This document shows, piece by piece, positions 4,726 through 38,304 of a stretch of 64,000 nucleotides of DNA (its first letter is position 1; each line of letters begins with the position of its first letter). The position numbers and the translations under genes were made by a program. A model generated the notes under the pieces. It saw only the letters and a program-made list of their open reading frames with translations. It ran no database searches and was not told the origin of the DNA. Origin of the DNA: a virus (Duplodnaviria; Caudoviricetes); the IMG/VR virus record IMGVR_UViG_3300028048_000099, positions 34,151 to 98,150 of that record. One strand, written 5' to 3'.

Positions 4726-4734
4726 TCGCTGATA

Positions 4735-5049: not shown

Positions 5050-5052
5050 ATC

Positions 5053-8000
5053 CTAACTGTTTTCCCCCTCTTTATTCTTGGGTCTCTCCTGTATTTTTGA
5101 GGAGAACTTGAAATGCTCGGTGATGTTCTTCTGCTTGTCCTTGTCCTTTATGACCGGTGACCAGGACATCGCGGTGTCATCGGACTCGCTTATGAAGTTG
5201 TCGCGGTAATCGGCGCGCCTGTCGTAGACCGACGTGTTGGCGTAGTAGTTGTAGGACACCGCGTTCTGAAGCCTTGATATAGGGCCGGAGAGGTCACTGC
5301 CGCCGAGGAACGTGAACGTCATGTTGACATTCGCCATCATCGGCTGGAGGCCGACCCCCTCAGGGTTGAGGTCCCACTGAACCCCGCCGCCCGTGTCATA
5401 CTCTATGTTTATGCTCTCAATGCATATCTTCGTGTTGAAGAAGTCGCCTATGCGCAGGACACAGAACGGCGCCCTGCCGAACGAGAGGTTACCCGCGCCG
5501 TAGGAGCCCCCGCCGAAAGTGTCCGACGCGGAGATTGTCGGCCCTTGCCTCAGGCATTGCTGGAGGAAGGTCAGACGCGCGTTGAAACCCTCGGGCGTGA
5601 TTGAGTGGAACGCCGGGTCAAAGTAATCCACCTTATCGGAGATGTAACGCTTGACCATGTCGTCATTCTCGTTAATCTGCTTGAAATAGGTATACTCGTC
5701 GTCATAGGTCTGGTTCTCGTAATCGTCAGCCTTACTCGTGTCAAATTCCTCCGTGTAACCGGTCTCGACCTTGGTGTTCTGCACAAGCCTGGTCTCAACC
5801 ACTTCCGCCTCCGCTAACTCCTGAACCTCGGTTATTATCGTCTCCTTCGGCACTATTCTAAAGGTGATTTTCGCCGCTCTCGCGGCCTTAGGCCTAAAAT
5901 CAGACTCGGACGCCACCGTGGTGCCGACTATCTGCCCGTTGCCGTTGGAGGATATCTTGTCTTTACCCTCTGAGAAATCAAAGCAACCGAGACTCCTTAT
6001 CCACCCCTCCAGCACGCGCGCGCGATTCTCCGCGAGAATCTTGTTGGAGGCCACATAACCGTCCGATGAGGCGTAACCCTGTATATCTATACTATACGTA
6101 TAATTATTCTTTGTTGCGGCGTTGAAAACCGTCACCATCTGTTTGAGGTTACGGAAAAAATTATACGCGGGCACGAGATATTTTTTCTGCTCGGCGTCCA
6201 TACTGAGAAGTGACATGGCGTCCTTCAGATTACTATCCGACTCACTGATGTCAACATTGCCGGTGTTGAGATACTCAACAATCTTATCCTCAGAAGGTAC
6301 CCCTGACCAGAACGTGCCATATAATGACGCGTCGGGGTTATTTGACCTGGAGCCGTTAAGCCCGTAATCATTCAAATCCTTATACGCCTTTATCTTGTCA
6401 CGGTTGACATTGTTGGAACGCACACCCAAGGTCTCGTTTTTGACCCTGGAATCAACCGGGTAATACCAGCTTTTGACGGTCCCGTTCTTGTCAGGCCCGC
6501 GGTAATAGTAGCCGTCGGGAAACCCCTTCCCGTTATATGTCATGCCTGTTTTTCCCGAGCCTTGTCCGAGCTCGTACCCGATTCCGCCACCATCCCTCAG
6601 TCCTTTCTCAAACATCTCCTCAATACCGGCGGTATAGTTTTGGGACTCGTTGAAATCCTGCGCGGCATAGTTGTTGGGATAATAGAATACGCTGTAAAAG
6701 GTCATGCCATCCTTATCGGGATTTTCCTCCTCCTTCTGGATGGTCTTGGCTTCCTTACCCGGAGACACCACCCTGTCCTTAAGTTCCTCATTGACATTGA
6801 CATTACGGGAGTCTATGAGGTCATAAGGCACGTCATAAGCCTCACGGGGATTGAACTCCATAGCGTCGCACCCGGCGAAATACCTGAGAATCATCTCGTC
6901 CTTACTCAACGGGTCAACCTTGTTCGCGGTCTTTCCCATCTTGCCTCCCCTGGCCCACTCGTTGATGATTGACGGGTGGTCTATAAGGAGCGTGAACGAG
7001 AGGCTCCCGTGTCTCTCGGAGTTGATATAGGTGTAAATCTTCTCGCCGCGGCCTATGAACTGGTTGTCGTTCCAGTTCGCCCTGGCCTGCTCGCTGAACT
7101 TAAGGTTATATGGAGGGAACCACATGATGCGTCCCCCGTTCGGTCCTCTCTGCTCCTCGGTCAGGGTCATTCCGAAACCGGTGGCCACGCCGCTCCTCGC
7201 ATTAACGGTGTTGACCGTGGTTGAGGTTGAGCGCTTGTCAAACTCGAATTCCGCGGAAATTGAGGATTTGTCCCGATTGAATTTGGCGTCCTCGCGTCTG
7301 ACGTTTACATTCACCGCGTCGGGTACTATATCCTTCCACGCCAGGTTCTCAATGGAGAACATGCACCTCTTGATTGAGTCCTCCTCCATCTTGTTCCTGT
7401 CATTGACATAGTACGGTGTGATAATCGGCCTGCCGTTCTCGGGGTCAAGGGACGTGAATTTCTTAAGCCTGTCATAACCCTTGTTCGGCCGCATGAGCTG
7501 GTCACCGTTATGAAGCGTGTAATGGCTCACGCCGGCGTTCATTGAGTCATCAGCCCATTTTCCCCTTATAAGGTGCTTGTACTTTGAGTACTGGTAATGG
7601 GTCGTCCATACTCGGCAGTAGGGATTCGGGTAGCCGTTCTCGTTCGTCAGGTCCAGCTTGCGGAGGTTCCTTCCCCTTGAGAGACCGTAAAGATGGTCTG
7701 TCGCCGTGTTCAGGAAACCCGGCATTCCCTCGTTATGCCCGTTGAGTGTCGCGAACCTGTTGGCCAGCGACCTTATCTTACCCTCATAGAACATCCTGTT
7801 GGTTTTCCCGAGCAGGCCCTTAATCTCCTTGTCGGGTGAGATAGTGTCAACGTCAAGGAAATACGCGTAATCGGACTGGGGCACGGCGTCACGGTCGTGC
7901 ACCATGACCCTGTTCCTCGGCTCGCCGTCGTAATTCTCCACGTAGAGCCCGTGCTCCGCGACACCGTTGAGAAGATTCAGGTAATAGTGTGACCCCATGT

Positions 8001-11140: not shown

Positions 11141-12463
11141 TCACTCGGAATCAACGAGAAAAATAAACTGGTCAAATTGTAGAAACACGGGCATGGAGCC
11201 ACCTCCGAGACTCTCAGGTTTCTCTATCTCAAAATTATAATCCACGCCTGGGGTGTTCTTGGCTATGTATCTTCTCAACGAGGAGGCGTCCCGGATAGGC
11301 ATCATCCGCACGTAATCATGGATGAATTTCCTGTCGGTGTTCCCGTTGACGGACATAATCTCCATCTCGAGCTCGTTTGACGCCCTGTGGGAGAACCTTG
11401 ACGCCTCGGGGTCACCCTTCTCCGACCATTTCACGAGCGTCTCAACCGCGTCCCTGATATCGGCGGTCTCTGACGCGCTCAGCGTCCCGTCCTTGCCGAG
11501 ATAGAACTCAACCCTCTCCTTGAAATCGTCTATCTCCGCCTTACGGAGGTCGGGCACCTCAAGCTTGTCAATCTTGGCCAGACCCGCGTAGTCGCCGTGG
11601 GTGAGGAACCTGAACTTGACCTTGTCCCCCGAGACAGGCAGCCCGTAGTCGAACCATCCGTTCTCGTCACCGGTGAGCGTGAAATCCTTGTATTTTATCT
11701 TTGACAGGTCAATCTTCGTGTCAAAACTCTTCTTGCTGACGGGGTCCGTGGCGGTCACGCTGTACATGTTACCGTAGGCCGATGACCTGAGGAAAAGTAT
11801 TATCGCGTCCCTGTCGCCGTCAAGAAGGCCGTCCGGGTCAATCTCCTGGTCACGAATCTTCTCCTTCAGGAGGATGTCAAGCACCAGGTTGTCCCTGTAA
11901 AGGTTGGGGGAGACTATGATGTTCTCGTCCATGGCCGTGAGGTAGGACACCGCGATTCTCCCCTGCTTGCTCTTGTAGCACTCGCCTTTTGAGGGGAGGG
12001 GGATAATGTCATAGGACGCCATCGGGTTCGTGTCCTCCATCTTCGTTATCACCTTCGCGGGGGATGTCTCGGCGATATCCCGCACGGACACCGGCTCCGA
12101 CACGGCTTTCTTCTTCCTCACCTTTGGTTTCTCGCTGACCTCCTCGGCCTCGGCTATACGTTCAAGGACCGTCTTGCCGGACGGTTTCCTGCCCGGTTTA
12201 GCGGATTCCTTTTTTGTCTCTCCCCTGAGCTCGTCCATCGTGCCGCCGAGGAAGAACCACTTGTCTATTATGTCCTGCTCGCCGTCCTTCAGGAGGGCGA
12301 GGCGGTCGTTAATCTGGCTCTCGGTGTATTTGGGCGACTTGTCCTCATTTTTCGCCTCGGACATCCTTTTCTCCGTCTCCTTGATGGTTTTCTCCCACAT
12401 GTCAAAGGAGGCCTTAAGTTGTCTCTTCTGTTTGTCAAGGTCCTTAATCTCAATGCTCGCCAT
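11141..12463 (-). CDS. T4 gp26-like baseplate hub / tail assembly chaperone
   Basis: YDIIPLPSKGECY...LTAMDENII...DGDRDAIILFLRSSAYG...KFRFLT pattern; charged N-terminal extension. Confidence 0.65.
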   Translation of the reverse strand: MASIEIKDLDKQKRQLKASFDMWEKTIKETEKRMSEAKNEDKSPKYTESQINDRLALLKDGEQDIIDKWFFLGGTMDELRGETKKESAKPGRKPSGKTVLERIAEAEEVSEKPKVRKKKAVSEPVSVRDIAETSPAKVITKMEDTNPMASYDIIPLPSKGECYKSKQGRIAVSYLTAMDENIIVSPNLYRDNLVLDILLKEKIRDQEIDPDGLLDGDRDAIILFLRSSAYGNMYSVTATDPVSKKSFDTKIDLSKIKYKDFTLTGDENGWFDYGLPVSGDKVKFRFLTHGDYAGLAKIDKLEVPDLRKAEIDDFKERVEFYLGKDGTLSASETADIRDAVETLVKWSEKGDPEASRFSHRASNELEMEIMSVNGNTDRKFIHDYVRMMPIRDASSLRRYIAKNTPGVDYNFEIEKPESLGGGSMPVFLQFDQFIFLVDSE

Positions 12464-22665: not shown

Positions 22666-24690
22666 ATGGTTTTTACGAGCGCGAAGGCACAAAACGAGGC
22701 GATTGAGATATTAAGGGGGTATTCAGGTACTAACCCTTACTATCTCATGCTAAAAAGGGATGTCATCCTCAATGGTGACGTCAAGAAGCTTAATGCCTTC
22801 AATGTGGAATATATCATTGAAAACCAAAACTTCATACCGAGACAAATCGGTAAGACGGTTAAAATCGCCGACTGGTACGGACTCAAGAAACAGCAGGACT
22901 GGGGCACGGAATTCGTCCCCCAAAAACTTCGTGTGGTCAGTCTTCTCGGGGAAACGAGCACGACTTACCATTGCTATGTCCAATACAGGCAGAGCGTGGA
23001 CCCGGTTATGGCGTTCCTCCCCAAAAAAGCGGTACTTACCAACTTCACTTTACCGGACTGGCACGATTATCCGGTTGATTTTGACCGATATGATAAACTG
23101 TCAATGTCAAAAGACCCGAACAGGAGGCTGAAACTTCACCAGAAGGACGGCGTGAGGTTCCTTCTCGCGAGAAAAAAGTGCGTCCTCGCCGATGATATGG
23201 GTTACGGGAAGACCTGTGAGCTCGCCGTAGCCGCCATTGAGGGTAATTTTGACGCCGTGCTCATCATCTGTCCCGCCTCAATCAAGACAAACTGGAAAAA
23301 AGAGCTCATGTGGTATGTCCCGGAGAGGGATATCACCATAATCGAGTCATATCTTGACAAAAATAAGGGAGAGCTGGAAAAATATCTCGGTTACAAGGAA
23401 GGAAAGTCCGGTTTAAGTGTCCCGGAGCTTCAGAATGAGGCCAAAGAGGCCGGTAAATGGGGTGAAAACCGTTTTGTCATTGTCAATTACGATATCATCA
23501 ACGAGTTTTATGAAATACCGGCCACGAGAAGCCGGGAAAACATAGAAAAAGCATACCAAAACAGCCCGATGCTCCAATATATAGCAAACAAGAAGGCGTT
23601 GGTAATCGTTGACGAGGCCCACAGACTGTCAAATACGACGGCTGACAGATATAAAATCATAAAGGACCTCATAAAGAGGGGAAACCCGGACAGCGTTTAC
23701 CTGGCGACCGGAACACCAATCACGAACAACCCCCAAAACTATTTTAATCTGCTCCAGCTCATCGGCGACCCTGTGGCTGATGACAGGGAATATTATATGA
23801 AGCGTTACTGCGCGGCGATAGAGATACCGAGAAACGCGAAGGAAAAGGCCAAGCGCGACGCGATAAGCAGGAAATTCATCGCGAACAGGGGCAAGTCAAA
23901 CTGGTACGAGCTTACGGACGGCGAAAAGGACGAGTTGCGTGAAATCGTGAAGAAAAGCGTGCGTATGCTGACCATTCCAAACGGCGAGAGCAACCTGGAG
24001 GAACTTAAGGACCGCACCGCGCACATTTATCTCCGCCGGGTGAAGGAAGACCTGCTTGATTTGCCGAACAAGACCGTTCACGAGGTGTTCTATGACCTTG
24101 ATATGGGTCAGATAATGGAATACAACCGGCTCTGGGAAGAATACGAGGCGGCGCAACTGGAGGCTGACCCGACGAAGGACCTGAACAAGGAACTTTTGGA
24201 GGGCGCGATTTACCGCAAGTACCTTTCAAACCAGATGGTGCCTAACACAATCAAACTCGCCGACTCATTCATCGGGAAGGGTGAGAAGGTCGTCATCGCG
24301 TGCTGTTATGACGAGGAACTGTATACGTTGAGAGATTACTATGGGGACAGATGCGTAATCTACAACGGGAAAGTGTCCGCCAAAGACAAGGACAGGAACA
24401 TTGAGAGGTTCACCAACGACCCGAACATTATGGTTTTTATCGGGAATATTCAGGCGGCGGGCGTTGGGATTACCCTATTGGCTTCCCACGTGCTGATTTT
24501 CAATAATATAAGTTTTGTGCCGGGCGATAATCTCCAGATGCAGGACAGGATTTACAGGATTGGGCAGACAAAAGACGTGGATATTTACTACCAGATTTTC
24601 AGGGACACACAATATGAGAAGATGTGGAATATTGTTCTTCGTAAATCATTGGTTATAAATCAAATAGTAAAGAAAGAAGACGAAAAGTGA
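22666..24690 (+). CDS. SNF2-family helicase/translocase
   Basis: LADDMGYGKT, ICPAS, DEAH, ATGTP, YLRRVKE, AGVGITL, QMQDRIYRIGQ. Confidence 0.95.
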   Translation: MVFTSAKAQNEAIEILRGYSGTNPYYLMLKRDVILNGDVKKLNAFNVEYIIENQNFIPRQIGKTVKIADWYGLKKQQDWGTEFVPQKLRVVSLLGETSTTYHCYVQYRQSVDPVMAFLPKKAVLTNFTLPDWHDYPVDFDRYDKLSMSKDPNRRLKLHQKDGVRFLLARKKCVLADDMGYGKTCELAVAAIEGNFDAVLIICPASIKTNWKKELMWYVPERDITIIESYLDKNKGELEKYLGYKEGKSGLSVPELQNEAKEAGKWGENRFVIVNYDIINEFYEIPATRSRENIEKAYQNSPMLQYIANKKALVIVDEAHRLSNTTADRYKIIKDLIKRGNPDSVYLATGTPITNNPQNYFNLLQLIGDPVADDREYYMKRYCAAIEIPRNAKEKAKRDAISRKFIANRGKSNWYELTDGEKDELREIVKKSVRMLTIPNGESNLEELKDRTAHIYLRRVKEDLLDLPNKTVHEVFYDLDMGQIMEYNRLWEEYEAAQLEADPTKDLNKELLEGAIYRKYLSNQMVPNTIKLADSFIGKGEKVVIACCYDEELYTLRDYYGDRCVIYNGKVSAKDKDRNIERFTNDPNIMVFIGNIQAAGVGITLLASHVLIFNNISFVPGDNLQMQDRIYRIGQTKDVDIYYQIFRDTQYEKMWNIVLRKSLVINQIVKKEDEK

Positions 24691-25469
24691 GTATAGAAAA
24701 CAGCATAAGCTTAATGGAAAGAATGGGGATGCTTCCCCCCGATAAAAAATTAAGGAGAAACGTTTTTGGATGTCACGAAACCATTGACGGAATAATAGAG
24801 GAAGGCATATTCAGGTCTTACGATGCGGAAAAAATACTTGAGGTCCTGAAACATCATTATATTATACATCGTGATAATCAGGCGCCAAAAACAGAATCGG
24901 AAATCACTATAGAGTTTGACGCATATAAAGATACCCCGATGACATATGGCACGGAAGAAGCGAGTGTCATAACAATCATCGTAAAAAGAGGAACGGAAGA
25001 AAAAAAACTGAAGCGTTTTTTCAACACCTGCGGATGGCCAACGGCGGAAGAGCACAACCATGAAACGGATAAAACGTCAGTAGTTGTAACGTTTGAAAAG
25101 AGGAGACAGGAAGATGAATTACCCGTACCAAAATTTTTATATCATCTGACACCGGAAAACAAGGTTGGTAAGATTTTGAAAAACGGATTAGCGCCAAAAG
25201 CGCAAAACAAATTGGGGGAGCATCCGGATAGAATATATTTTTTCTCGCAAAAAGATTTAACATTGAATTATAAATCTTATGCCGATGATTTTTGGGCAAG
25301 CGCGCACAAAGACACGAGGCGGGACATCAAATACTCATTACTTAAGATAGATACTGAAAAATGCCGGAATGATTTTAAAATATATGGCGACCCGAACATG
25401 ATTAGAGGGGTATGGACTTTTAACAATGTGCCGCCAGAAGCAATAACAGTGGAAGAAGAGGGAATTTAA
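24687..25469 (+). CDS. Protein with C-terminal ADP-ribosyltransferase-fold domain (Tpt1/KptA-like)
   Basis: LYHLT...ILKNGLAPK...RIYFF...LLKID...GDPN...NVPPEAI; AT-rich. Confidence 0.65.
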   Translation: MSIENSISLMERMGMLPPDKKLRRNVFGCHETIDGIIEEGIFRSYDAEKILEVLKHHYIIHRDNQAPKTESEITIEFDAYKDTPMTYGTEEASVITIIVKRGTEEKKLKRFFNTCGWPTAEEHNHETDKTSVVVTFEKRRQEDELPVPKFLYHLTPENKVGKILKNGLAPKAQNKLGEHPDRIYFFSQKDLTLNYKSYADDFWASAHKDTRRDIKYSLLKIDTEKCRNDFKIYGDPNMIRGVWTFNNVPPEAITVEEEGI

Positions 25470-27753: not shown

Positions 27754-30532
27754 TACTTTCAAATAAACTTTCTTCACCAGTTTCTTTATTTACTTTTGGT
27801 TCACCAAGATAACCCATTATACTGGCTAATATATTATTTTTTTCAGATTCATCCCACTGAAAAACGAAAGACGATGGGTTAGCCAATTGTTGTGTAAACT
27901 CAACATCCTCATTAGAAACCGTATTATTCTTAAAAGATGGTAAAATGTATAGTCCGGCCCAACCCCTTTTCTTAATAACACTGCTCTTTCTTTCGTCCGT
28001 AATTTTTCTAATCTGAGCATTAATCTCTTCATAAAAACGGTTTGGAGAGCCAAGAAATGATATTTCATATCCAAGTTCCTTTTTCGGGTACATTTTCAAT
28101 AAACTTATTGTTTGCTGTTTCATGACCTCATCATAAGATTTAACAAACTTAAAACCGTTCGGAATTCCCGTATTTTTAGTGTACTGTATGCCGTTATATT
28201 GAAGTAGTAGAGCGTAAATTGTTTGAACAACTTCATGCTCCGGACTTGTAGCTTTAATATATTCATCCGGTAAAACATCAGCTATTTCATTTAAATGCGT
28301 TTTTCTTTTAAACTCATCAAGCGTGATTTTAAATGGATTAAAAATGTCATATACCTCTAAAAATGGTTCACCTACAAGCATTTCGAAAATACTCTCATAC
28401 GCCTCTTTTAGATTCGTACTTACGAGTTCGTCTGAGACCAAATCTTTTCTCCTTATCGATTTTTCCTGATATTTAGTCATTTCATCATTAAATTTTTTCA
28501 AAAATTCAAGTTTAATTTTAGTCCACCAGTAAATTACACCATCTTTTTTGTTCACACTTTCGTCCGACGGTTTTACAAAGGATGGTCTGCAGTGGCCCTC
28601 TCCTTGATATTCAATTGAAAGAACTTTATCATTCTGCTCCTTCGCTAATTCAAACCAGTTAGGATTCTCAAGGTCGCCATTATATGTTGTATATAAAATA
28701 TCAATAGACTGGTCTCCAAATGCAGCATCTATTTTTTTTGCTCTGTTATATTCCCATGTATTATTGTATCCATTTGGTAGGTTTGCCAGCAAAAAACTAT
28801 ATATCTCGTTCTGCGTTCTATCGCGTGAGTCTTCAACATAAGAAACTAACTGTCCAAAAATTAAATCTTCTCCATATACTTTTCCTGCATTTTTTTTATA
28901 GGACTTAATCTTCTGGTCTGAGTCAGTATCTTCTTTGTATATTTCACTTAATGGCCTAAACATATTGCTTATAACAAGATAATCATCACCCCCATATAAT
29001 CCACTAGATAAGTTTTTATCAATTAATTTGTTAGCACTATTCATCATATCTATAAATCGTTCAAATGGAGTAAGTGAATAAAAAGTACTGTGCTCCGCCA
29101 ACCCAAGGCTTGCAAATTCTGTTAAAATGGTCTTAACCGTAGATTTTTTCCCAACATCAAACTTAAACTTTCTTTCGTATAATGGTTTTTCACTTTCATT
29201 TAGCCCCAATATGTTTTTCACTACATATGTAATTGTGTTTGTGTTTACTTCGGTAAACAAATCAAACAATCCAATAATTGAAGATACGCTATATGCAGCT
29301 GCATTAAATTCTTTAATCAGCCTATCACCCCAATTTTTAATTATGTTATTAAAATTACCTCCAGCAAAATCTCTTTTATATTTAACATAATATACCATTT
29401 GGTATATTGGTTTGATTGACGGAGTAGCCGCGATAAAAGGACGAATCGTGTTAGTTAATTCTTCTATATTTTTACTAATATCAAAAGAAAGAATATAAGC
29501 AGCCGTCATCAGCACTCCTCCGACGGTTCCTATATAGCTGTTCTTTATATCACCCCAATCAATTTGCCCGTTGTTAATTTTTTGGAAAAACTCATTAACC
29601 TTATCCTCCGAATCAAAATAACTATTCTTAAGAATTTCCAAATTTTCCGACGTTATTAAATCACCATAGTTCATTGCAATGTCATCAAGGACTGAATATT
29701 GTAAATAATCGGTTTTTTTTGCTTTTTTGAGGCTATCTGTTTCATTGTCATCAACCAAACTATATTCTTTTCCATAGAGTAAACTATGCAGTCTTTCTTC
29801 CTCATTTTTTACATATTCCCTAAAGTCAGGTGGTATTGAATTTTTTAAAACGTTTATTCCATGTAATCCTGATTTTGCAACAAAAGAGAAATATATAAAA
29901 TACAAAAACATAGAATAAGGGTCATAGACATTACCAATATTAAGAGAAGATATTTTTCTAATGTCTCCCAGTATAGTTTGGTTTTCCTGCATATATTTTA
30001 TGGCATTATACGACAAATCAGATATTTTCTGAAAATACCTTCTTATGTCGTTTTCATTTCCGCTCTTTAATATTTCTGGAGATAGTAGAGATTTACAACC
30101 GTTGTCATATATAGTTTTTACTATATCAATTCCATTATTACTCACTTTTATTGCACGCAAAAAGTTTCCTCTCGCCGTATCGTAGTTGTACCATGGACCA
30201 GACTCTCGATTAAATACTCGTGGTATGTTATTTAAAATCTCGTCTATGTCAGCATCAGTAAATTCCCTAAACTTTGCAAAAGGGCTGTTAGCAATTAAAT
30301 TTTTAGCCTCCTCATAATCTTCCGGGGATAGTGGATAATTTGGTACTGCGGGTAAATTTAGGGCTTTCAAAAAATCTAAATCCGGAGAGTATTCTTTAAA
30401 AAAGTTAGCCCATGATATACCAGCTCTTCCCCTTCCACCGAATATACTCTTTTCATTAAATGCATTTTCCTTTATCAAACCCTTCAGGTCCGACAAACCG
30501 AACAAATTATTTCTAACTTCCGTAATTTTCAT
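27710..30532 (-). CDS. Large AT-rich protein with possible PD-(D/E)xK (DUF559-like) nuclease motifs
   Basis: 940-aa ORF; SIDIL...LSIEYQGEGH and distal TDERKSSVIKKRGWAGLYI; late-type motif at 30567-30574. Confidence 0.7.
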   Translation of the reverse strand: MKITEVRNNLFGLSDLKGLIKENAFNEKSIFGGRGRAGISWANFFKEYSPDLDFLKALNLPAVPNYPLSPEDYEEAKNLIANSPFAKFREFTDADIDEILNNIPRVFNRESGPWYNYDTARGNFLRAIKVSNNGIDIVKTIYDNGCKSLLSPEILKSGNENDIRRYFQKISDLSYNAIKYMQENQTILGDIRKISSLNIGNVYDPYSMFLYFIYFSFVAKSGLHGINVLKNSIPPDFREYVKNEEERLHSLLYGKEYSLVDDNETDSLKKAKKTDYLQYSVLDDIAMNYGDLITSENLEILKNSYFDSEDKVNEFFQKINNGQIDWGDIKNSYIGTVGGVLMTAAYILSFDISKNIEELTNTIRPFIAATPSIKPIYQMVYYVKYKRDFAGGNFNNIIKNWGDRLIKEFNAAAYSVSSIIGLFDLFTEVNTNTITYVVKNILGLNESEKPLYERKFKFDVGKKSTVKTILTEFASLGLAEHSTFYSLTPFERFIDMMNSANKLIDKNLSSGLYGGDDYLVISNMFRPLSEIYKEDTDSDQKIKSYKKNAGKVYGEDLIFGQLVSYVEDSRDRTQNEIYSFLLANLPNGYNNTWEYNRAKKIDAAFGDQSIDILYTTYNGDLENPNWFELAKEQNDKVLSIEYQGEGHCRPSFVKPSDESVNKKDGVIYWWTKIKLEFLKKFNDEMTKYQEKSIRRKDLVSDELVSTNLKEAYESIFEMLVGEPFLEVYDIFNPFKITLDEFKRKTHLNEIADVLPDEYIKATSPEHEVVQTIYALLLQYNGIQYTKNTGIPNGFKFVKSYDEVMKQQTISLLKMYPKKELGYEISFLGSPNRFYEEINAQIRKITDERKSSVIKKRGWAGLYILPSFKNNTVSNEDVEFTQQLANPSSFVFQWDESEKNNILASIMGYLGEPKVNKETGEESLFESIIRELFSDNNFQLN

Positions 30533-30600
30533 ATGCCATAAAACGCCACAAGAGGCACTTATTTGCTATAAATATCTCTCTGGCAATAAAAAGAGTCAAT

Positions 30601-30629
30601 TTGTTTTCCACGGATTTTTTCCGTACTAT
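30601..30629 (+). promoter_or_regulatory. Sigma70-like promoter for PolB N-half
   Basis: TTGTTT-N17-TACTAT, with a T-tract in the spacer as in sister promoters. Confidence 0.55.
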
Positions 30630-30675
30630 AGGGTTGGAAACGGTCAGAGGATATGGCCTGATAAACAGTAAAGTT

Positions 30676-33192
30676 ATGGAAGAATTTAAGAGACAAGAGA
30701 TTACGATGGAGGCCGTGCGCACCTTTATGGAAGGGCACGACCCGGAGGAGAGGATAGTCAATATCACGGCAAGTTTCAGGGACCCCTTCGTCAAGGTCTA
30801 TTACAGGGATGAGGACGATAACAAGTGTGTTTCGGAGCGTCCTTTTTATCCGTTCGTGTGGGCCAAAAGGGAGGTCTGCGTGCTCATGAAGAGGTATGTC
30901 ATGGACAACGGCATCTGCGGCGGCAGCATGGCCAAGCTGATGGGGAAGCACGGAATCTTCGTCAAGGAGCTCTCAACGAGAAACAACGAGGGCCAGGTCG
31001 TGGAGTCAATGGAGGACGGCTACACCTATATCTTCTACGCCACCAGGGCCATGTCATACAGTGATTTCCTTAAGTTCTTCAAGGAGGCCGGATATCCGGT
31101 GTACAAGGACAGGAAAGACGGGCAGGAGGAGCTCGCGAGAAACAAGACCAGGTATTACCTGACCGCGACGCCCGAGGAGCAGTACCTCATCTCCACCGGA
31201 AAGAGGTATTTCAAGGGCTACAACGATTACGACGAGACCCTGCGCATGATTTTTGACCTTGAGACCACCGGCCTTGACACGAGGAGGGACCGGATTGAGC
31301 AGATTGGTGTCCGGTTCAACAGGCCCGTCAAGTACAAGGGCAAGACATATAATTTTGAGAGGGTTTTCGCGGTTGAGGGCGCGACCGACAGTGAGAGGGA
31401 CGCGAGCGAGCTGGAGGCCATCAGGAACTTCCTCCTGTGCGTGTCGCTTTTCAAGCCGGATGTCATCACGGCCCACAACGGGGAGAACTTTGACTGGAAC
31501 ATGCTCATAGGTGCGTGTGAGAGGCTCGGCACGTCAATGTACGAGCTGTCAAAGGAGTTCCTCAACGGCGAGCCGATTTACAAGAGCCAGAAGGAGAACG
31601 TCCTGAAGCTCGGAGGCGAGGTTGAGAAGTACCGTCCCACCGTCGTCCCGCACACCGTCATCACGGACAGCCTGCATGCCGTGAGAAGGGCCCAGGCCAT
31701 GGACTCGAATATGAAGAAGGCCGACCTTAAGTACGCGACCAAGTACGCCAAGCTCGTCAAGAAGAACCGTGTGTATGTTCCCGGCGACAAAATCTCAACC
31801 GTATGGAACGACAACGAGGCACATTACGCTTTCAATGATGAGGACGGCAAATGGTACGAGATAACGGACAAGAAGCCGTTGAGGGATGGTTATGAGGCTG
31901 TCACCGGAAGGTACATCGTTGAGAGGTACCTGCTGGACGACCTTTGGGAGTGCGACAAGGTGGAGCTGAAATACAACGCCACGAACTTCCTCATCTGCAA
32001 GATTCTTCCGCTTCCCTACCAGAAGTGCACCACGATGGGCACCGCCGGACAGTGGAAGGCGCTCCTCATGGCGTGGAGCTACGAGAACGGGCTCGCGATT
32101 CCCGACGCCCCGAACACCGGCAAGTTCACCGGCGGGCTGTCAAGACTTTTGAGGGTCGGCTATGTCGACAATGTCATCAAGCTTGACTACAACTCCCTGT
32201 ATCCCTCCATCATCCTCACCTGGGGTATAGAGGACGAGAAGGACCTCATGGGAACGATGCTGAAGTTCCTGGAGTATGTCCTCACCACCCGAGAGCAGTC
32301 AAAGGCGTTGAAGAAGAAGGCCGGCGAGGTCGTTGAGAAGTATGAGAAAAGGATAGCCAAGGGACAGACGCTCACTCCCGAGGAACAGCAGGAGTACCAG
32401 GACGCGCAGAGGGATTACGCGTTCAATGACGGAAAGCAGATGCAGCAGAAGGTCCTTGGAAACTCGTTCTTTGGTTCCTATGGTTCTAACATTGGCTCGC
32501 TGTTCCCTTGGAAGTCAATTGTTTGTGCCGAAAGGACTACCTGCACCGGCCGTCAGTCACTCCGTCTTATGATTAGCCATTTTGCAAAACTTGGATATAT
32601 ACCTATCGTTGGTGACTCATTCACGCCAGACACCCCGGTCTTCATAAAATACAACGAAACCGGACTGATTAACATTAAACCGATTTGTGAGTTGATAAAT
32701 GAAGAAGAAATAAAAACTGATGAACTTGGAAGGGAGTATGATTATTCCAAGAAGGACTACAAGGTACTCTGCCGTTCAGGTTGGGTTGAGCCGTCATATA
32801 TTTACCGACACAAGACAGACAAGGATATCTACGAGGTCAACGATGGTGATATGAGGATTGACGTGACGGAAGACCACTCGCTTTTTAACGCTGAGCAGGA
32901 AAAGATAAAGCCGAGTGAATTAAGTGGGGAAACCGAACTTGAATATTATAATGGTAAGATAAGGCCCGACGGTTATCATAGATATTTTGCAAACATGACA
33001 CCTTTTGCTAAACAATGGGCAGAAAAAGTAGCAGAAGGAAGCCTTGATAGGGTCCCGGTTGAGGTTTTGAACTATCCTCCTGTTTATCAAAAAGCTTTTT
33101 ATGAAACATTTATGGAAAACTCCCACGATGATGTTGACTACTCAAAAACTTGTCTCGCTGGTTTGCAATATATAAAAAGTCAAATTAAATAG
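30676..33192 (+). CDS. polB: Family B DNA polymerase, N-terminal half, fused to split-intein N-fragment
   Basis: Exo I FDLETT, Exo II HNGENFD, Exo III YLLDD, motif A LDYNSLYPS, motif B KVLGNSFFG; polymerase sequence ends at IVGD and intein follows. Likely start ATG 30676. Confidence 0.93.
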   Translation: MEEFKRQEITMEAVRTFMEGHDPEERIVNITASFRDPFVKVYYRDEDDNKCVSERPFYPFVWAKREVCVLMKRYVMDNGICGGSMAKLMGKHGIFVKELSTRNNEGQVVESMEDGYTYIFYATRAMSYSDFLKFFKEAGYPVYKDRKDGQEELARNKTRYYLTATPEEQYLISTGKRYFKGYNDYDETLRMIFDLETTGLDTRRDRIEQIGVRFNRPVKYKGKTYNFERVFAVEGATDSERDASELEAIRNFLLCVSLFKPDVITAHNGENFDWNMLIGACERLGTSMYELSKEFLNGEPIYKSQKENVLKLGGEVEKYRPTVVPHTVITDSLHAVRRAQAMDSNMKKADLKYATKYAKLVKKNRVYVPGDKISTVWNDNEAHYAFNDEDGKWYEITDKKPLRDGYEAVTGRYIVERYLLDDLWECDKVELKYNATNFLICKILPLPYQKCTTMGTAGQWKALLMAWSYENGLAIPDAPNTGKFTGGLSRLLRVGYVDNVIKLDYNSLYPSIILTWGIEDEKDLMGTMLKFLEYVLTTREQSKALKKKAGEVVEKYEKRIAKGQTLTPEEQQEYQDAQRDYAFNDGKQMQQKVLGNSFFGSYGSNIGSLFPWKSIVCAERTTCTGRQSLRLMISHFAKLGYIPIVGDSFTPDTPVFIKYNETGLINIKPICELINEEEIKTDELGREYDYSKKDYKVLCRSGWVEPSYIYRHKTDKDIYEVNDGDMRIDVTEDHSLFNAEQEKIKPSELSGETELEYYNGKIRPDGYHRYFANMTPFAKQWAEKVAEGSLDRVPVEVLNYPPVYQKAFYETFMENSHDDVDYSKTCLAGLQYIKSQIK
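32617..33189 (+). mobile_element. Split intein N-fragment (191 aa) with degenerate LAGLIDADG-endonuclease remnant
   Basis: Block A SFTPDTPVFIK, YRHK, block B VTEDHSLF; then VPVEVLNYP..QKAFY and SKTCLAGLQYI. Confidence 0.88.
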
Positions 33193-33194
33193 TC

Positions 33195-34103
33195 ATGGAT
33201 AAGCTAAACGAGACATTTATAAAAAGGATAAACAAAATCATAACGGAAGAGTTCGGCATTAACGATGCGTTGGACAAGGAGGCAACCAGAGCCGCGACGT
33301 CAATCATTATGAACATCAACGGAAAAGATTTCAAATGGGACGATGAAAGTGGGGTATATAAACGATATCACACGGAGAAAGTCACCTTAGGAGAAAAGAG
33401 CGTTAAAATATATGTCACAAACTATTGGTTTAAAACTGTTGGTGAGCGTGACAGCTTTTTGAAATCCGCGATTGTGCCACTCGGTTACGTATATGAGGTG
33501 AATATGATATTCATTCCGTTGTATAGTGTCGGTGATGCGTCATTTGATGTTGACGACGCGACGGACACTATCTATCACGAAATAGAGCACTTCTTTCAAA
33601 CGTCTAAGATGGGTCATAATTTCGGGTCCGCTGAATTATATGCAAAAGCAAAAAGCAATATAAAATCACGGAACGAAACAACCAGGGCTATCGCCGAGAT
33701 ATTTTACATGTCTTTTCCAAGCGAACAGGACGCGATGGTCAACGGAATGTATGGTTCACTCAAAAAATATTCGTATGTTGAAGTACATAAGAAAATAATG
33801 GAAAGTGAGGCGGCAGTATGGTGCAAAAAACTTTACGAGGATTATAATCTGTTAAAAAAGACGGACAGGGACGCTTTAAATGCTGAACTTGAAAAATATG
33901 GCAAAAGCCATGAACAGTTTTTCAAAATTGCTACAAAGGCGATAAAACGTTTTGAGAAAAAACTTGCGAGGACAACATTCAAACTCATAAAAGACGCGCA
34001 ACTAAGAGACGGGGTAAGACTTGAGCCTGGGAAACTTGAAGAAAGTTATACGCCTGGGAAAGATTACTGGCTCACCACCTATTTTGACAAGTTTTTGAAG
34101 TGA
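33195..34103 (+). CDS. Putative zinc metalloprotease-like protein (HExxH...ExxA) between the intein halves
   Basis: IYHEIEHFFQ and SEQDAM; N-terminal KLNE..INKIITEE leader. Confidence 0.7.
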   Translation: MDKLNETFIKRINKIITEEFGINDALDKEATRAATSIIMNINGKDFKWDDESGVYKRYHTEKVTLGEKSVKIYVTNYWFKTVGERDSFLKSAIVPLGYVYEVNMIFIPLYSVGDASFDVDDATDTIYHEIEHFFQTSKMGHNFGSAELYAKAKSNIKSRNETTRAIAEIFYMSFPSEQDAMVNGMYGSLKKYSYVEVHKKIMESEAAVWCKKLYEDYNLLKKTDRDALNAELEKYGKSHEQFFKIATKAIKRFEKKLARTTFKLIKDAQLRDGVRLEPGKLEESYTPGKDYWLTTYFDKFLK

Positions 34104-34122
34104 GAAAATATTTTTGTATTAT
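34095..34122 (+). promoter_or_regulatory. Sigma70-like promoter dedicated to PolB C-half
   Basis: TTGAAG-N16-TATTAT, about 30 nt upstream of ATG 34153. Confidence 0.55.
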
Positions 34123-34152
34123 ACAGGTGTTAATGATTTTAATGATATTTTT

Positions 34153-34254
34153 ATGTTAAAAGTTAAAAACAAAGGGAAATCAAACGAATATGTTTATGAC
34201 ATTTCGCTTGACGGAACGGTTGTTAACGCGTTAGGACTGAATGTTGTTTCAAAT
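34153..34254 (+). mobile_element. Split intein C-fragment (34 aa)
   Basis: MLKVKNKGKSNEYVYDISLDGTVVNALGLNVVSN: block F YVYDIS, terminal Asn, Thr at +1. Confidence 0.88.
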
Positions 34255-35733
34255 ACCGACGGTTTCAACTTCAAGCTCCCGGACACGTTCAGATATACGG
34301 AAGACAACCCATATGTAAGTCCAGGATTATCAAGGGAAACAAAGAAAGGGAAGGCTTATACAGGTTATGAGGCTGATGTTGCGGAGTTCAACGACCAGTT
34401 TATGTCCGACAAACATTATGCTGACAATGCGGTTAACAAAATGGGTCTCGGAATAGACGAAATCGTTTCCGCGACCATCAACTTCTCCAGGAAGAACTAC
34501 GCGGACCATTTTCCCGACAAGCCGTACCCGGAGGACGTGAAGATGGTGGGAAACACCATCAAGTCAAAGAAGATGCCGGAGTACATTGAGAAGTTCCTTG
34601 ACAAGGGAATCCGCCTGCTATTGAAAAATGACGGGCAGTCCTTCCTGAACGAGTATTACGACTATATTGACAAGATTTACAGCTACCGCATCCCCCTGAG
34701 GGAAATCGCGTCCAGGGGCAAGGTTAAGAAGAGCCTGCGGGAGTATGTTGATGACTGCAAGACCATAACCAAGGCCGGGAGGCCGAAGTCAAGGCAGGCG
34801 TGGATGGAGCTCGCGATGAGGGACGGGCTTGAGGTCAACCTCGGCGAGACGCTGTTCTACATCAACACCGGCAAGTCAAAGTCCCAGAGCGACGTGAAGA
34901 AGGTGACCCACTATTATGAGGTGGGAGGGCTTTTCGGCGACAAGATGGACATGAGGGTGGCCCTTGAGAAGGAGTGGAAGGCGGCCCCCAAGACGAGGAC
35001 AGTCATTGACGGCATCCCGCTGAGCCTGGCCGAGTACGTCAAGAGATACCACCCCGAGGTCACCGTGGAGGACGAGATTATCCTCAACGCGTCGCTGCTC
35101 CCCAGGGACATGGTCGAGTCGGAGAAGGACATTTACTGCAAGGACATGCCGGGAATGGAGTACAACGTCCCCAAGTACATCAGCCAGTTCAACAGCCGAA
35201 TCAAGCCGCTCCTCGTCTGCTTCTCAAAGGATATAAGGGACAGGATATTGATTAACAACCCGTCCGAGAGGCCCTATTTCACCGAGGAGGAGTCAAGGCT
35301 CTCAAGCGGCGAGCCCAACAACCCGGGTGACCAGGACACTTTTGAGCAGCTCATGACTATGGAGGACAAGGAGATAAGGTTCTGGAAATCACATCCGGAG
35401 TTCAAAATCCCCTTCCTTGACGAGTGCGGCATGGACTGGGACGCCATCCTTAAGGACTATGACGGCAGGATGGCCAGGGAGAAGGAGCTCGGTATAAGCT
35501 TCGTGCGCGAGGAGGTTGAGAAGGCAATCGGCAAGATGACGGCCGAGGAGTTTGACAAGTTTGAGGAGGAGGGTGAGATACCGGCCTCACTGAAAAGGCT
35601 GGTTGATTTTGACCCGGTCACGAGCAATTTCGTGGACAAGACATACCCGGACATCATCATCATGACGATTTACGACCTCCTCGACGCGAGATACGCCAGG
35701 GAAAACGAGAATGGAGAGGAAGCCGAAGCTTGA
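34153..35733 (+). CDS. polB: Family B DNA polymerase, C-terminal half, preceded by split-intein C-fragment
   Basis: After the intein ...VVSN comes TDGFNF (rest of motif C), then RKNYA and GNTIKS palm/thumb motifs. Confidence 0.92.
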   Translation: MLKVKNKGKSNEYVYDISLDGTVVNALGLNVVSNTDGFNFKLPDTFRYTEDNPYVSPGLSRETKKGKAYTGYEADVAEFNDQFMSDKHYADNAVNKMGLGIDEIVSATINFSRKNYADHFPDKPYPEDVKMVGNTIKSKKMPEYIEKFLDKGIRLLLKNDGQSFLNEYYDYIDKIYSYRIPLREIASRGKVKKSLREYVDDCKTITKAGRPKSRQAWMELAMRDGLEVNLGETLFYINTGKSKSQSDVKKVTHYYEVGGLFGDKMDMRVALEKEWKAAPKTRTVIDGIPLSLAEYVKRYHPEVTVEDEIILNASLLPRDMVESEKDIYCKDMPGMEYNVPKYISQFNSRIKPLLVCFSKDIRDRILINNPSERPYFTEEESRLSSGEPNNPGDQDTFEQLMTMEDKEIRFWKSHPEFKIPFLDECGMDWDAILKDYDGRMAREKELGISFVREEVEKAIGKMTAEEFDKFEEEGEIPASLKRLVDFDPVTSNFVDKTYPDIIIMTIYDLLDARYARENENGEEAEA

Positions 35734-35748
35734 CCTCTCCATTTTTTT
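35710..35748. terminator. Terminator at end of PolB C-half
   Basis: AATGGAGAGG...CCTCTCCATT followed by a T-tract. Confidence 0.65.
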
Positions 35749-36398
35749 TATCCGTATCTCTCGCTGGTACCCTTAAGCCTGTCCCGTAAATCCGAGTCAA
35801 GCGCGGCCGTGTAGTTTTTCCAGTCATTATAGTCATTATAACTGACACTCGTGTTCATAACGCTATCGCCGGATGAACAGGTTATGTTGTTTTTATCCAT
35901 CCAATCCGGCTGGTCGCCGATGGTGTGCTCATACGTTATCCAGGGTGTTGTTCCCGTGGACCACGGATTGGGGTATGGCGTCGCCGGGTTTATAATGGGC
36001 TCCCTTGTCAGTTTCTCAAATTCAAGCCCGTTTATTTTCGATTTTGCCTCGTTCAATTCCTCCTCAAGTTCCTTTACCGTTTTACGTAAGGATTTCACCT
36101 CGTACAGCAGCTTGTCAATCATCGCCTCGTCGTCGGTGAGCTCCTCCGCGTGACTCTTTATCACCTCCGCGACCTTTGACTTAAGCTCTTCCTTGAAAGA
36201 TTTGATTCCATTCTCAAGTTTATACCCGGAATTCGCATCGTCTGTCTTGTAAAAAGTCTTCTCGTGTGTGACTGTCACGTCAACCCGCTCAATGTAAACT
36301 TTCCCGAACAAATGTACCTTTTTCCCGGTCTGCTCAATCGTGTAGGTATAGTTCTCCATGACCTTATCCAACACCTCATAAACTGTCCTGTTCTTCAT
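35748..36398 (-). CDS. Hypothetical coiled-coil protein
   Basis: 216-aa ORF; upstream TTGACA-N17-TATTTT (36445-36417) overlapping an inverted repeat. Confidence 0.7.
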   Translation of the reverse strand: MKNRTVYEVLDKVMENYTYTIEQTGKKVHLFGKVYIERVDVTVTHEKTFYKTDDANSGYKLENGIKSFKEELKSKVAEVIKSHAEELTDDEAMIDKLLYEVKSLRKTVKELEEELNEAKSKINGLEFEKLTREPIINPATPYPNPWSTGTTPWITYEHTIGDQPDWMDKNNITCSSGDSVMNTSVSYNDYNDWKNYTAALDSDLRDRLKGTSERYG

Positions 36399-36450
36399 AA
36401 CGCATCATTTACAGTAAAAATAAAACCTTGACAGGTGATTGTCAAGGCTT

Positions 36451-38304
36451 TCAAACATCATATAACCTGTTGAAACCGGTCACTTTTTTTCCGGTGTTGT
36501 TCCTGACGCTCATCTCCCTCGCCTTCTCGCGGGTCGCGACCCTTCTCGTCACGACAGGTACGGGAGGTTTCTCCTTTTTCATGACCGTCTTCACCTGGGG
36601 CTCAAGCCTTCTCGTGACCATGGGCTTCAGATGCTCAGGCCTTGTGAACCTGACCGGCTTCTCCACTGTTCTCCTTACCGGTCCCGGGCTCTCCTTGATT
36701 TTGTTTTTTTGAGGGATTCCAGCAACCTCTCCTTCTGTAGGGCCGTCATCCTTTTTTTCCCCCACCCGCGTTATCTTCGGCGCGGGTTTTCTCGGTGTGA
36801 CCGGTGTCTCCGTCGTGTGAGGTTTGGGCTCGGGCTCGATTTTCCCGTACGGGTGTGTGTCAAGCCCTATCTTGTCATAACCCTCGTTTTTCCTGGTCTT
36901 CAGTTTGGGGTCCTGTATCGCGAGATTCACGATGGCAAACGACCCTGTCAGGCCCTTGTCATTGAGCGGGGTGTCCGGGGGCAGCAGCCTTTGCTCCTGG
37001 GCACCGATTATCCTCTCCATAGCCTTCCTGTCCAGTGAGTAGCATGAGCAGAAAATGAAAAAGACCTTGGGCGCCGCCATGTCGCCATAAAGGGCGCCCG
37101 CGGGCAATGAGTTGATATATTGCTTGTATCGTGACCCCTCGCCTCCGGCCGAGCAGACCATCTTGTCAAACATGACCACATTGGTGTCGGGCATGCTCGA
37201 GAGGAGCTCCCTGACATGCCACATGTCCCTGTGGAACCTGACGTCGTCCTCCATGATTAATATCCTCTTGTAGCCAAGCGAGTAAGCCTCCTTTATAATC
37301 TCGTAGTGCTTAAGTGAGACACGTTTGACATATTCCCTGCTTGACGCCTTGAGCGCGGTGTCCATTTTCAGCTTAGGGTCCTTGAAAACAAGGTCGTTCA
37401 ACGGGGAGGGATAATCATAGACCCATGAGAAATAATCGGCGTCCTCATCAATCCCCACCCGCTTGAATTCTTCCCTCAGTTTCGGGAGCCTGTCATTTGA
37501 CGGGAGGTAATGCAGGCAATATATATGGTCAAAGACGTCACTAAAATTCGAATTTTCAAAACCACCGGCCCCAGTATTATCAGACCAATATTCTTTGTAT
37601 TTATTGAGCCATTCAACGACCGGCATATGCTTTGGTCTTTTCATTTTCTCAGCGGCATTAACCCAACTGCCGTTACCATAATGCACAATGTAATCAGCGG
37701 CTTTTATTTCTCTATGTAGCCCTTTTTTTTGCTCCGTTAAAATGTATAATGCCCCGCCGGTATCATAGTTATCACTATTACCCTTAAACCTTAAACCATG
37801 CATATAGTTCTCATCAAAGTAGTGTATTCCTTTTGTTTTACACATTGGTGTATTGATAAAACAAATAAATGGAAGAACCCTTTTTATCCTCTTATTTGTA
37901 CCAGGTTGATATATCACTTCTCCCTTATAGCAAACAATCTCATCAAATAGAATACTAAAGTCTTTTTTGACGAGAACGTCGCTATCAAAAAGAACAAACG
38001 GTTCCTTGATTAGTTCCATACACTTTTCAACACTGTATGCGTGTTTCGCGCTTCCCCAGTTATTCGCTTTTCCGCCTGACTTTTCCCTATTTGGATATTT
38101 TTTCAACCACTGGTCAAAATTAATTATTTGCCCCCTTGTATTATCAAAAACCGTCACGTTGTAGAATGAGTTTATGAAAGGGGCCTTGTCACTATTGTCA
38201 AATATGTATATTTTCGTCCCCGGTGTATGTTTGTTTATGCTCTTGACCAAATGTGCGGTAAGAACAGGCGTATTATAATGTATTATGCAAACATTTTTAT
38301 TCAT
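36451..38304 (-). CDS. Two-domain glycosyltransferase (GT2-like + GT25-like) with basic Pro-rich tail
   Basis: IIHYNTP..IFDNSD..LFDSDV; then FDHIYCLH..LKHYEII..ILIMEDDVRF. Confidence 0.8.
   Translation of the reverse strand: MNKNVCIIHYNTPVLTAHLVKSINKHTPGTKIYIFDNSDKAPFINSFYNVTVFDNTRGQIINFDQWLKKYPNREKSGGKANNWGSAKHAYSVEKCMELIKEPFVLFDSDVLVKKDFSILFDEIVCYKGEVIYQPGTNKRIKRVLPFICFINTPMCKTKGIHYFDENYMHGLRFKGNSDNYDTGGALYILTEQKKGLHREIKAADYIVHYGNGSWVNAAEKMKRPKHMPVVEWLNKYKEYWSDNTGAGGFENSNFSDVFDHIYCLHYLPSNDRLPKLREEFKRVGIDEDADYFSWVYDYPSPLNDLVFKDPKLKMDTALKASSREYVKRVSLKHYEIIKEAYSLGYKRILIMEDDVRFHRDMWHVRELLSSMPDTNVVMFDKMVCSAGGEGSRYKQYINSLPAGALYGDMAAPKVFFIFCSCYSLDRKAMERIIGAQEQRLLPPDTPLNDKGLTGSFAIVNLAIQDPKLKTRKNEGYDKIGLDTHPYGKIEPEPKPHTTETPVTPRKPAPKITRVGEKKDDGPTEGEVAGIPQKNKIKESPGPVRRTVEKPVRFTRPEHLKPMVTRRLEPQVKTVMKKEKPPVPVVTRRVATREKAREMSVRNNTGKKVTGFNRLYDV

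Follow-up and report, generated by a model that had tools for sequence, protein, structure and literature searches.

The polymerase gene studied here, the family-B DNA polymerase gene (polB) of a tailed phage, is split by an intein, and the sole open reading frame (ORF) lying between the two intein halves encodes a 302-aa protein with an HExxH...E signature, which we call the cargo. The stretch analysed, referred to as the window, comprises 64,000 nt, namely bases 34151-98150 of the 98,150-nt IMG/VR virus record IMGVR_UViG_3300028048_000099 (Duplodnaviria; Caudoviricetes). Because CheckV rates this record 26% complete, the window is a fragment of a large phage genome, and related contigs reach 242-393 kb. 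The locus is probably an old fractured polB in which the contents of the gap have turned over, with a mobile passenger gene kept and the homing endonuclease gene (HEG) lost, and the cargo would not be the gene that split polB. The elements of the locus are the following.

30676..32616, + strand: PolB N-extein, with exonuclease and palm domains and the end ...GYIPIVGD (Pfam DNA_pol_B and DNA_pol_B_exo1, phrog_262)
32617..33192, + strand: N-terminal intein half (IntN), 191 aa and stop (Ser1 in SFTPDTPVF, block B ...VTEDHSLF, conserved C-terminal extension of ~80 aa)
33195..34103, + strand: cargo gene, 302-aa HExxH...E (gluzincin-like) protein (invariant residues, AF2 model, fold matches)
33207..34126, + strand: recently exchanged cassette (high-identity stretch common to the metagenome locus L051)
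34095..34122, + strand: putative sigma-70-like promoter match TTGAAG-N16-TATTAT (9 of 12 positions)
34153..34254, + strand: C-terminal intein half (IntC), 34 aa, MLKVKNKGKSNEYVYDISLDG...NVVSN (conserved start; SN end, then Thr+1)
34255..35733, + strand: PolB C-extein, TDGFNF..., with the remainder of motif C and the thumb (phrog_262, phrog_1918 DNA polymerase)

polB is interrupted at motif C by a split intein

In the ORF at 30601/30676-33192, two thirds of a family-B DNA polymerase, from the N-terminus onward, are followed by IntN, and the ORF ends with a TAG stop at 33190-33192. The second ORF, 34153-35733, comprises IntC and the C-terminal part of the polymerase; its start is most likely the ATG at 34153, since the IntC start M(L/I)x(V/I)KNKGK is kept in three related loci (L051, L009 and L012). 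The C-half begins with block F (YVYDIS), followed by VVSN and Thr. The polymerase is broken at catalytic motif C (...IVGD / TDGFNF...), joining of the exteins restores IVGD-TDG, and the nucleophiles at the splice junctions are Ser1 and Thr+1. The arrangement is that of a fractured gene: there is one breakpoint, the two ORFs are adjacent and on the same strand, and the exteins rejoin into a contiguous conserved protein, with the N-ORF closing with the IntN blocks and the C-ORF opening with blocks F and G, Asn and the +1 nucleophile.

Among solved inteins, IntN matched the Neq Pol split intein NEQ068 (E 0.24) and a chain whose title is DNA-directed DNA polymerase (E 0.22), both marginally, and the Pfam Intein_splicing match lay under its cut-off. 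It is the conserved blocks, the seamless orthologues that lack the insertion and the published precedents (PMC6892783, PMC11923092) that identify the insertion, from its sequence, as a real intein. PolB would be restored by protein trans-splicing, independently of the cargo.

At 191 aa, IntN exceeds the typical length by ~70-80 aa. The excess corresponds to an extension at 32920-33189 (the last ~80 aa, ending ...YSKTCLAGLQYIK) that is conserved in all four split loci and may be the stump of an older embedded endonuclease domain; a search of this tail for a vestigial LAGLIDADG domain gave no Pfam match, even at E <= 10.

The contents of the gap vary among related polB loci

A comparison of polB loci in related phages, which an earlier note on this DNA had proposed, was made with five parts of the window searched by tblastn, and the set comprised ten related loci in viral contigs and one in a metagenome. 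Both intein-less contiguous forms and split forms were found, and the cargo does vary among them.

L005-L008 and L011, PolB 88-90% identical to the window: uninterrupted polB, with N- and C-extein matches that abut to the base
L010 and L013, PolB 54% identical to the window: single uninterrupted polB
L012, PolB 53-54% identical to the window: same split intein, a single gap gene
L009, PolB 59% identical to the window: same split intein, two gap genes
L051, PolB 69% identical to the window: same split intein, three genes in the gap

In the seven intein-less orthologues the N- and C-exteins are contiguous (for example at 9944/9945 in L005) and IntN is missing, whereas L051, L009 and L012 carry IntN at the identical site (59-68% identity). 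The C-terminus of IntN, ...YSKTC(L/I)AGLQ(Y/F)(I/L)K..., and the start of IntC are identical in position in all four split loci, the window included. IntC has the same first residue in the four and is 76-88% identical among them; the IntN identities (54-68%) parallel those of PolB (54-69%), and the intein and the HEGs have diverged to about the same extent as PolB. A common IntN end and IntC start, together with intein divergence that tracks PolB, point to a split of polB that arose once, long ago. For the same two reasons the fracture appears to be old and HEG-associated and the zincin-like gene a later passenger, which speaks against the proposal of the earlier note that insertion of the accessory gene had split polB. 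The idea, made in the same note, of the intein as a safe landing pad stands in one respect, since the contents of the gap vary and the spacer behaves as a tolerated site, but the accessory gene would have entered a gene that was already split.

What are the other gap genes? L012 has one, of 311 aa, L009 has two, of 565 and 554 aa, and L051 has an HEG of 495 aa beside its cargo homologue. All four of these HEGs match phrog_559 ('HNH endonuclease') at E 2e-66 to 1e-157, and phrog_3339 ('homing endonuclease') is a strong match for those of L009 and L051, not for that of L012; over phrog_559, phrog_3339 and phrog_9084 ('HNH/homing endonuclease') the matches have E 1e-64 to 1e-157. The proteins contain DUF723, treble-clef zinc-finger repeats and a weak restriction endonuclease-like segment. 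Because their gap genes are matches to HEG families, L012, L009 and L051 are textbook fractured genes, as the passages on fractured genes in Dassa et al. 2009 (PMC2677866) describe them, that is, a split intein with a free-standing homing endonuclease. The HEG is thus present in the gaps of these three loci and missing from that of the window. The same passages include one locus (gp41-7) without an HEG between the intein parts, and they describe no gene other than HEGs in that position.

The key intermediate in this series is L051, where the order after the IntN stop is the HEG (3487-4974), a cargo homologue (4986-5894; 302 aa, 91%), an ORF of 102 aa (5928-6236) and IntC. Across the loci, the gap is absent together with the intein, or contains one HEG, two HEGs, an HEG with the cargo and a small ORF, or, in the window, the cargo alone.

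Two further observations were made on these loci. In the HEGs of L051 (3487-4974) and L009 (10613-12310 and 12469-14133), a C-terminal region of ~200 aa gives weak matches to Mom-family or GNAT acetyltransferases (E 1e-5 to 2e-3); it follows the zinc-finger repeats and the nuclease-like segment, an unusual fusion for an HEG. In L012, the polB C-half carries, besides the split intein and its HEG, a group I intron at 11845-12149 (+ strand; Rfam RF00028, 70.6 bits, E 1e-17), and in this clade selfish elements of several kinds have a hot spot in polB. An Rfam scan of window positions 30000-36500 found no RNA family.

The cargo cassette has a younger history than its surroundings

By blastn, window positions 33207-34126 match L051 5004-5922 with 90.8% identity over 920 nt, whereas the polB/intein flanks on both sides are 68-69% identical. 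The proportion of synonymous differences (pS) between the two loci is 0.27 for the cargo, against 0.79 for IntN, 0.57 for IntC and 0.95 (saturated) for the PolB C-extein, and the ratio of nonsynonymous to synonymous change (dN/dS) of the cargo against the L051 copy is 0.12. This contrast in pS and the low dN/dS indicate that the cargo gene is functional and under purifying selection, and that it shares with the L051 copy a much more recent ancestor than do the surrounding sequences. The cargo has moved separately, between the spacers of inteins that are only 68% identical.

Base composition bears on the origin of the element as well. The exteins have a GC content of 53-54%, compared with 39% for IntN, 39.5% for the cargo and 33% for IntC, and the backbone of L051 has 34-38%. 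Because the intein and cargo differ in this way from the exteins and the nearest relatives are intein-less, a GC-rich polB lineage may be supposed to have acquired an AT-rich intein element.

For 47 close homologues of the cargo, genomic context was read from their N-terminal variants and from one metagenome locus (L051). The variants form two N-terminal classes, MKNRTLNETF... (L051-like) and MDKLNETF... (window-like). Three window-like homologues of 317 aa extend upstream with SRW(I/V)AI(H/Y)KK(A/T)NGIV, which is the +1-frame reading of the 3' end of IntN; it follows that the layout with the cargo directly after IntN recurs on other contigs, of 63-85 kb, and, on this reading of their N-termini, is not an assembly artefact.

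The cargo is most likely a divergent zinc metallopeptidase

The cargo ATG lies 2 nt past the IntN stop, and the ORF at 33195-34103 lies between the IntN and IntC ORFs, as the earlier note had reported. That note had also recognised no endonuclease motif in it, and we found no significant match, to an endonuclease or otherwise, in Pfam, PHROGs, NCBIfam and PADLOC, and nothing in a profile search of the PDB. For the known classes of HEG (LAGLIDADG, GIY-YIG, HNH, His-Cys box, PD-(D/E)xK and EDxHD) there was no profile match, and no nuclease was prominent in the fold searches. Absence from such profile and fold lists leaves a nuclease possible, but the invariant residues appear to fit a zinc peptidase site better. 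Searches of isolate phage records by tblastn and megablast gave no match for the cargo or for the locus.

The cargo belongs to a family that, in an exhaustive HMMER search (E <= 1e-3), comprises 295 clusters at 50% identity, nearly all of 250-340 aa; its Atlas neighbours are annotated as viral, and the viral contigs that carry its loci are as long as 393 kb. An alignment of 64 sequences, with a mean column identity of 24%, has H128, E129, H132, Y171 and E177 invariant, and Q135, Y149, N183, G184 and E18 are present in >=90% of the sequences. The HEIEH motif and the downstream EQDA that had been noticed in the single sequence are therefore real features, conserved far above chance. E177 belongs to a S-x3-EQDAxxNG motif in the helix 175-189, 45 residues past the second His. 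The (I/L)xE leader of the earlier note likewise proved to be part of a family-wide N-terminal motif, (I/L/V)xEE(L/F)GI(S/N), which includes E18.

The AF2 model has a pLDDT of 91 for the whole protein and of 94 for residues 1-192 modelled alone. In order, it predicts two N-terminal helices, a five-stranded sheet, the HExxH helix (119-139), helices with Y171 and E177, and a long helical C-terminal half. H128, E129 and H132 thus lie on an alpha-helix, as in gluzincins, with pLDDT >94. In a fold search with the whole protein the C-terminal half brought generic helical bundles, and because these swamped the search the N-domain (1-192) was modelled alone. An exhaustive VIA search with the N-domain, the structure search that had been proposed for this protein, gave a divided answer: zincin peptidases account for 8 of the 20 top matches, but all are weak (Z <= 4.9). 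They are PprI/IrrE (Z 4.9, root-mean-square deviation 4.7 over 102 residues), lugdulysin (M30; 3.9), Dcp (M3; 3.9), the VgrG2b metallopeptidase (3.7), organellar oligopeptidase (OOP; 3.6), neurolysin (3.6), CapP (3.6) and ArdC (3.4). Leads from the Atlas, all with scores <0.9, are SprT-like, Zn_peptidase_2, LPD23 and DUF3920.

Taken from conservation and the predicted fold, the cargo is most likely a divergent gluzincin-type zinc metallopeptidase, in which His128, His132 and Glu177 would be the metal ligands, Glu129 the base and Tyr171 a helper. It resembles the gluzincin/IrrE-ImmA-CapP-type and SprT-like zincins in that the HExxH helix follows a beta-sheet, a helix further on carries an invariant Glu and a Tyr is likewise invariant; it differs from the known zincins in lacking Pfam, NCBIfam or PHROGs membership, in the position of its Glu, in its long C-terminal helical domain and in the occurrence of its family mostly on large viral contigs, often in several copies. 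Two larger proteins are fused forms of the cargo family: P0078 (886 aa) is a tandem of two complete HExxH modules, and P0185 (1429 aa) has one HExxH module at its C-terminus, with a WG beta-repeat.

The cargo family is mobile and often lies beside homing endonucleases

Most members of the family are at sites unrelated to polB. The same genome contains, outside the window, two paralogues of the cargo that are 29% and 23% identical to it, which makes three copies in 98 kb. Judging from the translations of the neighbouring genes, one paralogue lies between a 394-aa FEN-type 5'-3' exonuclease-like ORF and a RecA-like gene, and the other between dUTPase-like and thymidine kinase-like genes. Both are AT-rich islands (35% GC, against 51-55% for their neighbours). 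In a close relative with 80-87% nucleotide identity (G002), the dUTPase/thymidine kinase paralogue is precisely absent, the flanking matches overlapping by 20 nt. These observations mark the family as accessory, mobile and not specific to polB.

At the FEN/RecA site of the same relative, the paralogue (24625-25431 of the whole record) is replaced by a 140-aa lipoprotein-like ORF (L019:2642-3064) that has a lipoprotein-type signal peptide (MKSMKKILVFIAGLLCLFGCGF...), and an ART-like gene beside recA is likewise missing there. The region around this slot is a hypervariable accessory-gene region.

In other phages, members of the family adjoin, among others, genes whose N-termini look tail sheath- or terminase-like. 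Such neighbours, known from the look of their N-termini, bring to mind a function in the virion: the family could consist of effector proteases that are packaged in the capsid and injected, with the (I/L/V)xE-E(L/F)GI motif as a cleavage or targeting leader for the prohead protease and the position in polB incidental. The N-terminal motif is indeed family-wide (E18 in >=90% of sequences), and the model places it between two helices, in a linker of lower confidence; moreover, multi-copy, diversifying genes that are polymorphic for presence and absence are typical of an arms race. But residues beyond the putative cleavage site are conserved as well, a sign of a structural role for the motif, and no prohead protease was identified in the genome (a search for the T4-type PF03420 was uninformative, as it missed control genomes too). 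We regard this reading as unlikely. It concerns function only and is compatible with the history of the locus that we favour.

How does the family move? An HEG of the same family as those in the polB gaps directly adjoins a family member in 7 independent loci (L028, L031, L033, L035, L051, L052 and L053/54), on the same strand and often overlapping it. Comparison of L033 with L034 and of L035 with L036 reveals in each pair a clean insertion or deletion of the HEG beside a resident family member. Directly upstream of the HEG insertion, L035:2601-3330 is a tract 76% identical to L036 within surrounding DNA that is 98-99% identical, the pattern expected as a footprint of homing co-conversion or of target-site immunity. 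HEGs have been described as marking boundaries of genetic exchange between phages (PMC10448857), and the loci compared here agree with that description. Co-conversion with a neighbouring HEG would offer a mechanism for movement of the cargo that does not require the cargo to be a nuclease.

The opposite view would make the HExxH protein itself a new kind of homing nuclease that cuts intein-less or cargo-less alleles and spreads itself by this means, so that the window would have an ordinary fractured gene with an unrecognised HEG. Several of its properties recall an HEG, in that the three copies in 98 kb each lie between conserved DNA-metabolism genes and are each absent from a close relative, that the cassette was recently transferred with sharp borders, and that the top fold match, PprI, is a zincin that binds single-stranded DNA. 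We nevertheless hold this view to be very unlikely. Searches of four libraries brought up neither a nuclease motif nor a nuclease family, and the invariant residues suit a peptidase zinc site; a bona fide HEG adjoins the cargo in L051, which is enough to explain mobility; both genomes of the pairs L033/L034 and L035/L036 keep the family member, the HEG being what is inserted or deleted; and neighbouring slots in this genome vary for unrelated genes too.

Transcription of the C-half

The sequence TTGAAG-N16-TATTAT, read in the earlier note as a promoter of the C-half, is present at 34095-34122, but as a signal it does not stand out: matches of this 9/12 type show no enrichment, with 11 in 5.7 kb where shuffled sequences have 7.1 +/- 2.7. 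L051 has TTGAAG-N16-TAAAAT at the same place; because the site is inside the exchanged cassette, this conservation is not independent evidence. A different element, TATTTAT, occurs within 60 nt upstream of 21 of the 91 called genes of the whole record (the window and 34 kb upstream of it), with ~1 expected by chance, and is a likely phage promoter element as far as this distribution indicates; it is not found upstream of IntC. A Bacteroides-type -7 motif, TAnnTTTG, precedes IntC both in the window and in L009 and was rejected as a candidate, as it occurs 49 times genome-wide against 51.5 expected and before 1 of the 91 genes.

The gaps among the three genes are 2 nt and 49 nt. No terminator-like site was found in these intergenic gaps, the sole one on the plus strand of the stretch (33897-33912) being inside the cargo ORF. 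Because the genes lie on one strand, are tightly spaced and have no terminator-like site between them, co-transcription from the promoter of the polB N-half is the simpler reading of the sequence, although a separate start for the C-half is possible.

The earlier note had gone further and suggested that the protease could process or regulate the precursors of PolB or of the intein, and that separate promoters could make polymerase assembly a switch with two inputs. The location of the cargo inside polB, its probable co-expression with it and the sigma-70-like pair of hexamers that precedes IntC in the window as well as in L051 are in keeping with such a coupling. However, most family members, including the two paralogues in this genome, are far from polB, the same intein occurs without the cargo in L012 and L009, and in the closest relatives the intein itself is missing. 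As for the switch, the promoter match is at the level of chance, TATTTAT does not precede IntC, the three genes follow one another closely on a single strand, and the IntC start in L051 overlaps the end of the upstream 102-aa ORF. We hold a functional coupling to the polymerase to be very unlikely, and neither part of that suggestion is upheld.

Discussion

We favour a history in which a split intein located at motif C, its gap occupied by free-standing genes according to the model in the fractured-gene passages of Dassa et al. 2009 (PMC2677866), would have been gained by the lineage of the window from a relative of low GC content. The cargo would have travelled as a passenger beside the HEG, through co-conversion or through recombination at breaks induced by the HEG. 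The HEG may afterwards have been lost, leaving IntN, cargo and IntC, which are probably transcribed together with polB. Once located between the halves of an essential gene, the cargo was perhaps hard to delete, as an imprecise deletion would destroy PolB. It is probably a dispensable accessory factor, whose likeliest target would be a host or defence protein and not PolB.

Several points weigh against this history. No remnant of an HEG is visible in the spacer of the window, and its loss is deduced from the relatives. The protease chemistry of the cargo would follow from a motif and a weak fold, for Foldseek found nothing in the PDB at E <= 0.001 and all VIA fold matches have Z < 5. The adjacency of HEGs and family members may just reflect shared insertion hot spots, and the divergent tract between L035 and L036 is part of the upstream gene rather than of the family member. 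Finally, a comparison of the exteins with five intein-less relatives detected no co-conversion tract, there being no dip in identity at 90-nt resolution.

How does the locus relate to known systems? It is like the fractured genes in those passages of Dassa et al. 2009 (PMC2677866) in that the break in an essential DNA-metabolism gene falls at a conserved motif, with adjacent IntN and IntC ORFs on the same strand and a free-standing gene between them, and it is unlike them in that the gap holds an HExxH zincin-like accessory gene and no HEG. Split family-B polymerases are known from phages: in the jumbo phage vB_PaeM_MIJ3 an HNH HEG separates the intein halves of a split PolB (PMC6892783), and T4-like Aeromonas phages have a cysteine-less PolB1 split intein, Aes123 (PMC11923092). 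The window shares with both a phage family-B polymerase with a naturally split intein, and its block B, VTEDHSLF, compares with ...VTEDHS in MIJ3; the intein of the window uses Ser1 and Thr+1 as its splice-junction nucleophiles. The gap gene differs from that of MIJ3 in not being an HNH HEG, and IntN differs from the Aes123 half in length (191 aa, against 120 aa for AesN). In the HEG islands of Barth, Dunham and Seed 2023 (PMC10448857), an accessory segment of high identity similarly moves between divergent phages beside an HEG in or near essential genes; here, in contrast, what was exchanged is one gene of 0.9 kb inside the spacer of a split intein, and in the window the HEG is gone. The fractured-gene arrangement itself is therefore known, and what is new is a comparative series of spacer turnover that ends with only a non-nuclease passenger.

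A broader view, to which we give tentative and limited credence, is that split-intein gaps in essential phage genes are deletion-proof harbours that take in accessory genes, keep them and spread them by HEG-driven recombination, and that the HExxH family is perhaps a large unnamed class of HEG-hitchhiking zincin effectors of large phages, perhaps acting in anti-defence or host takeover and possibly delivered with the virion. Independently of this view, the cargo family is sizeable, uncharacterised and HEG-associated, with a zincin-type active site, and could reasonably be included in screens for anti-defence functions. Protein engineering makes use of cysteine-less PolB split inteins, to which the Ser1/Thr+1 split intein, with its IntC of 34 aa, contributes a further natural variant. 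For the biology of these phages, our reading would extend the fractured-gene model as the passages cited from Dassa et al. present it: once an HEG has invaded, further genes can enter the gap and the HEG can disappear from it, and a passenger may resist deletion because it lies inside an essential gene. The series of loci described here suggests that the gaps of split inteins are apparently able to collect passenger genes and to keep them.

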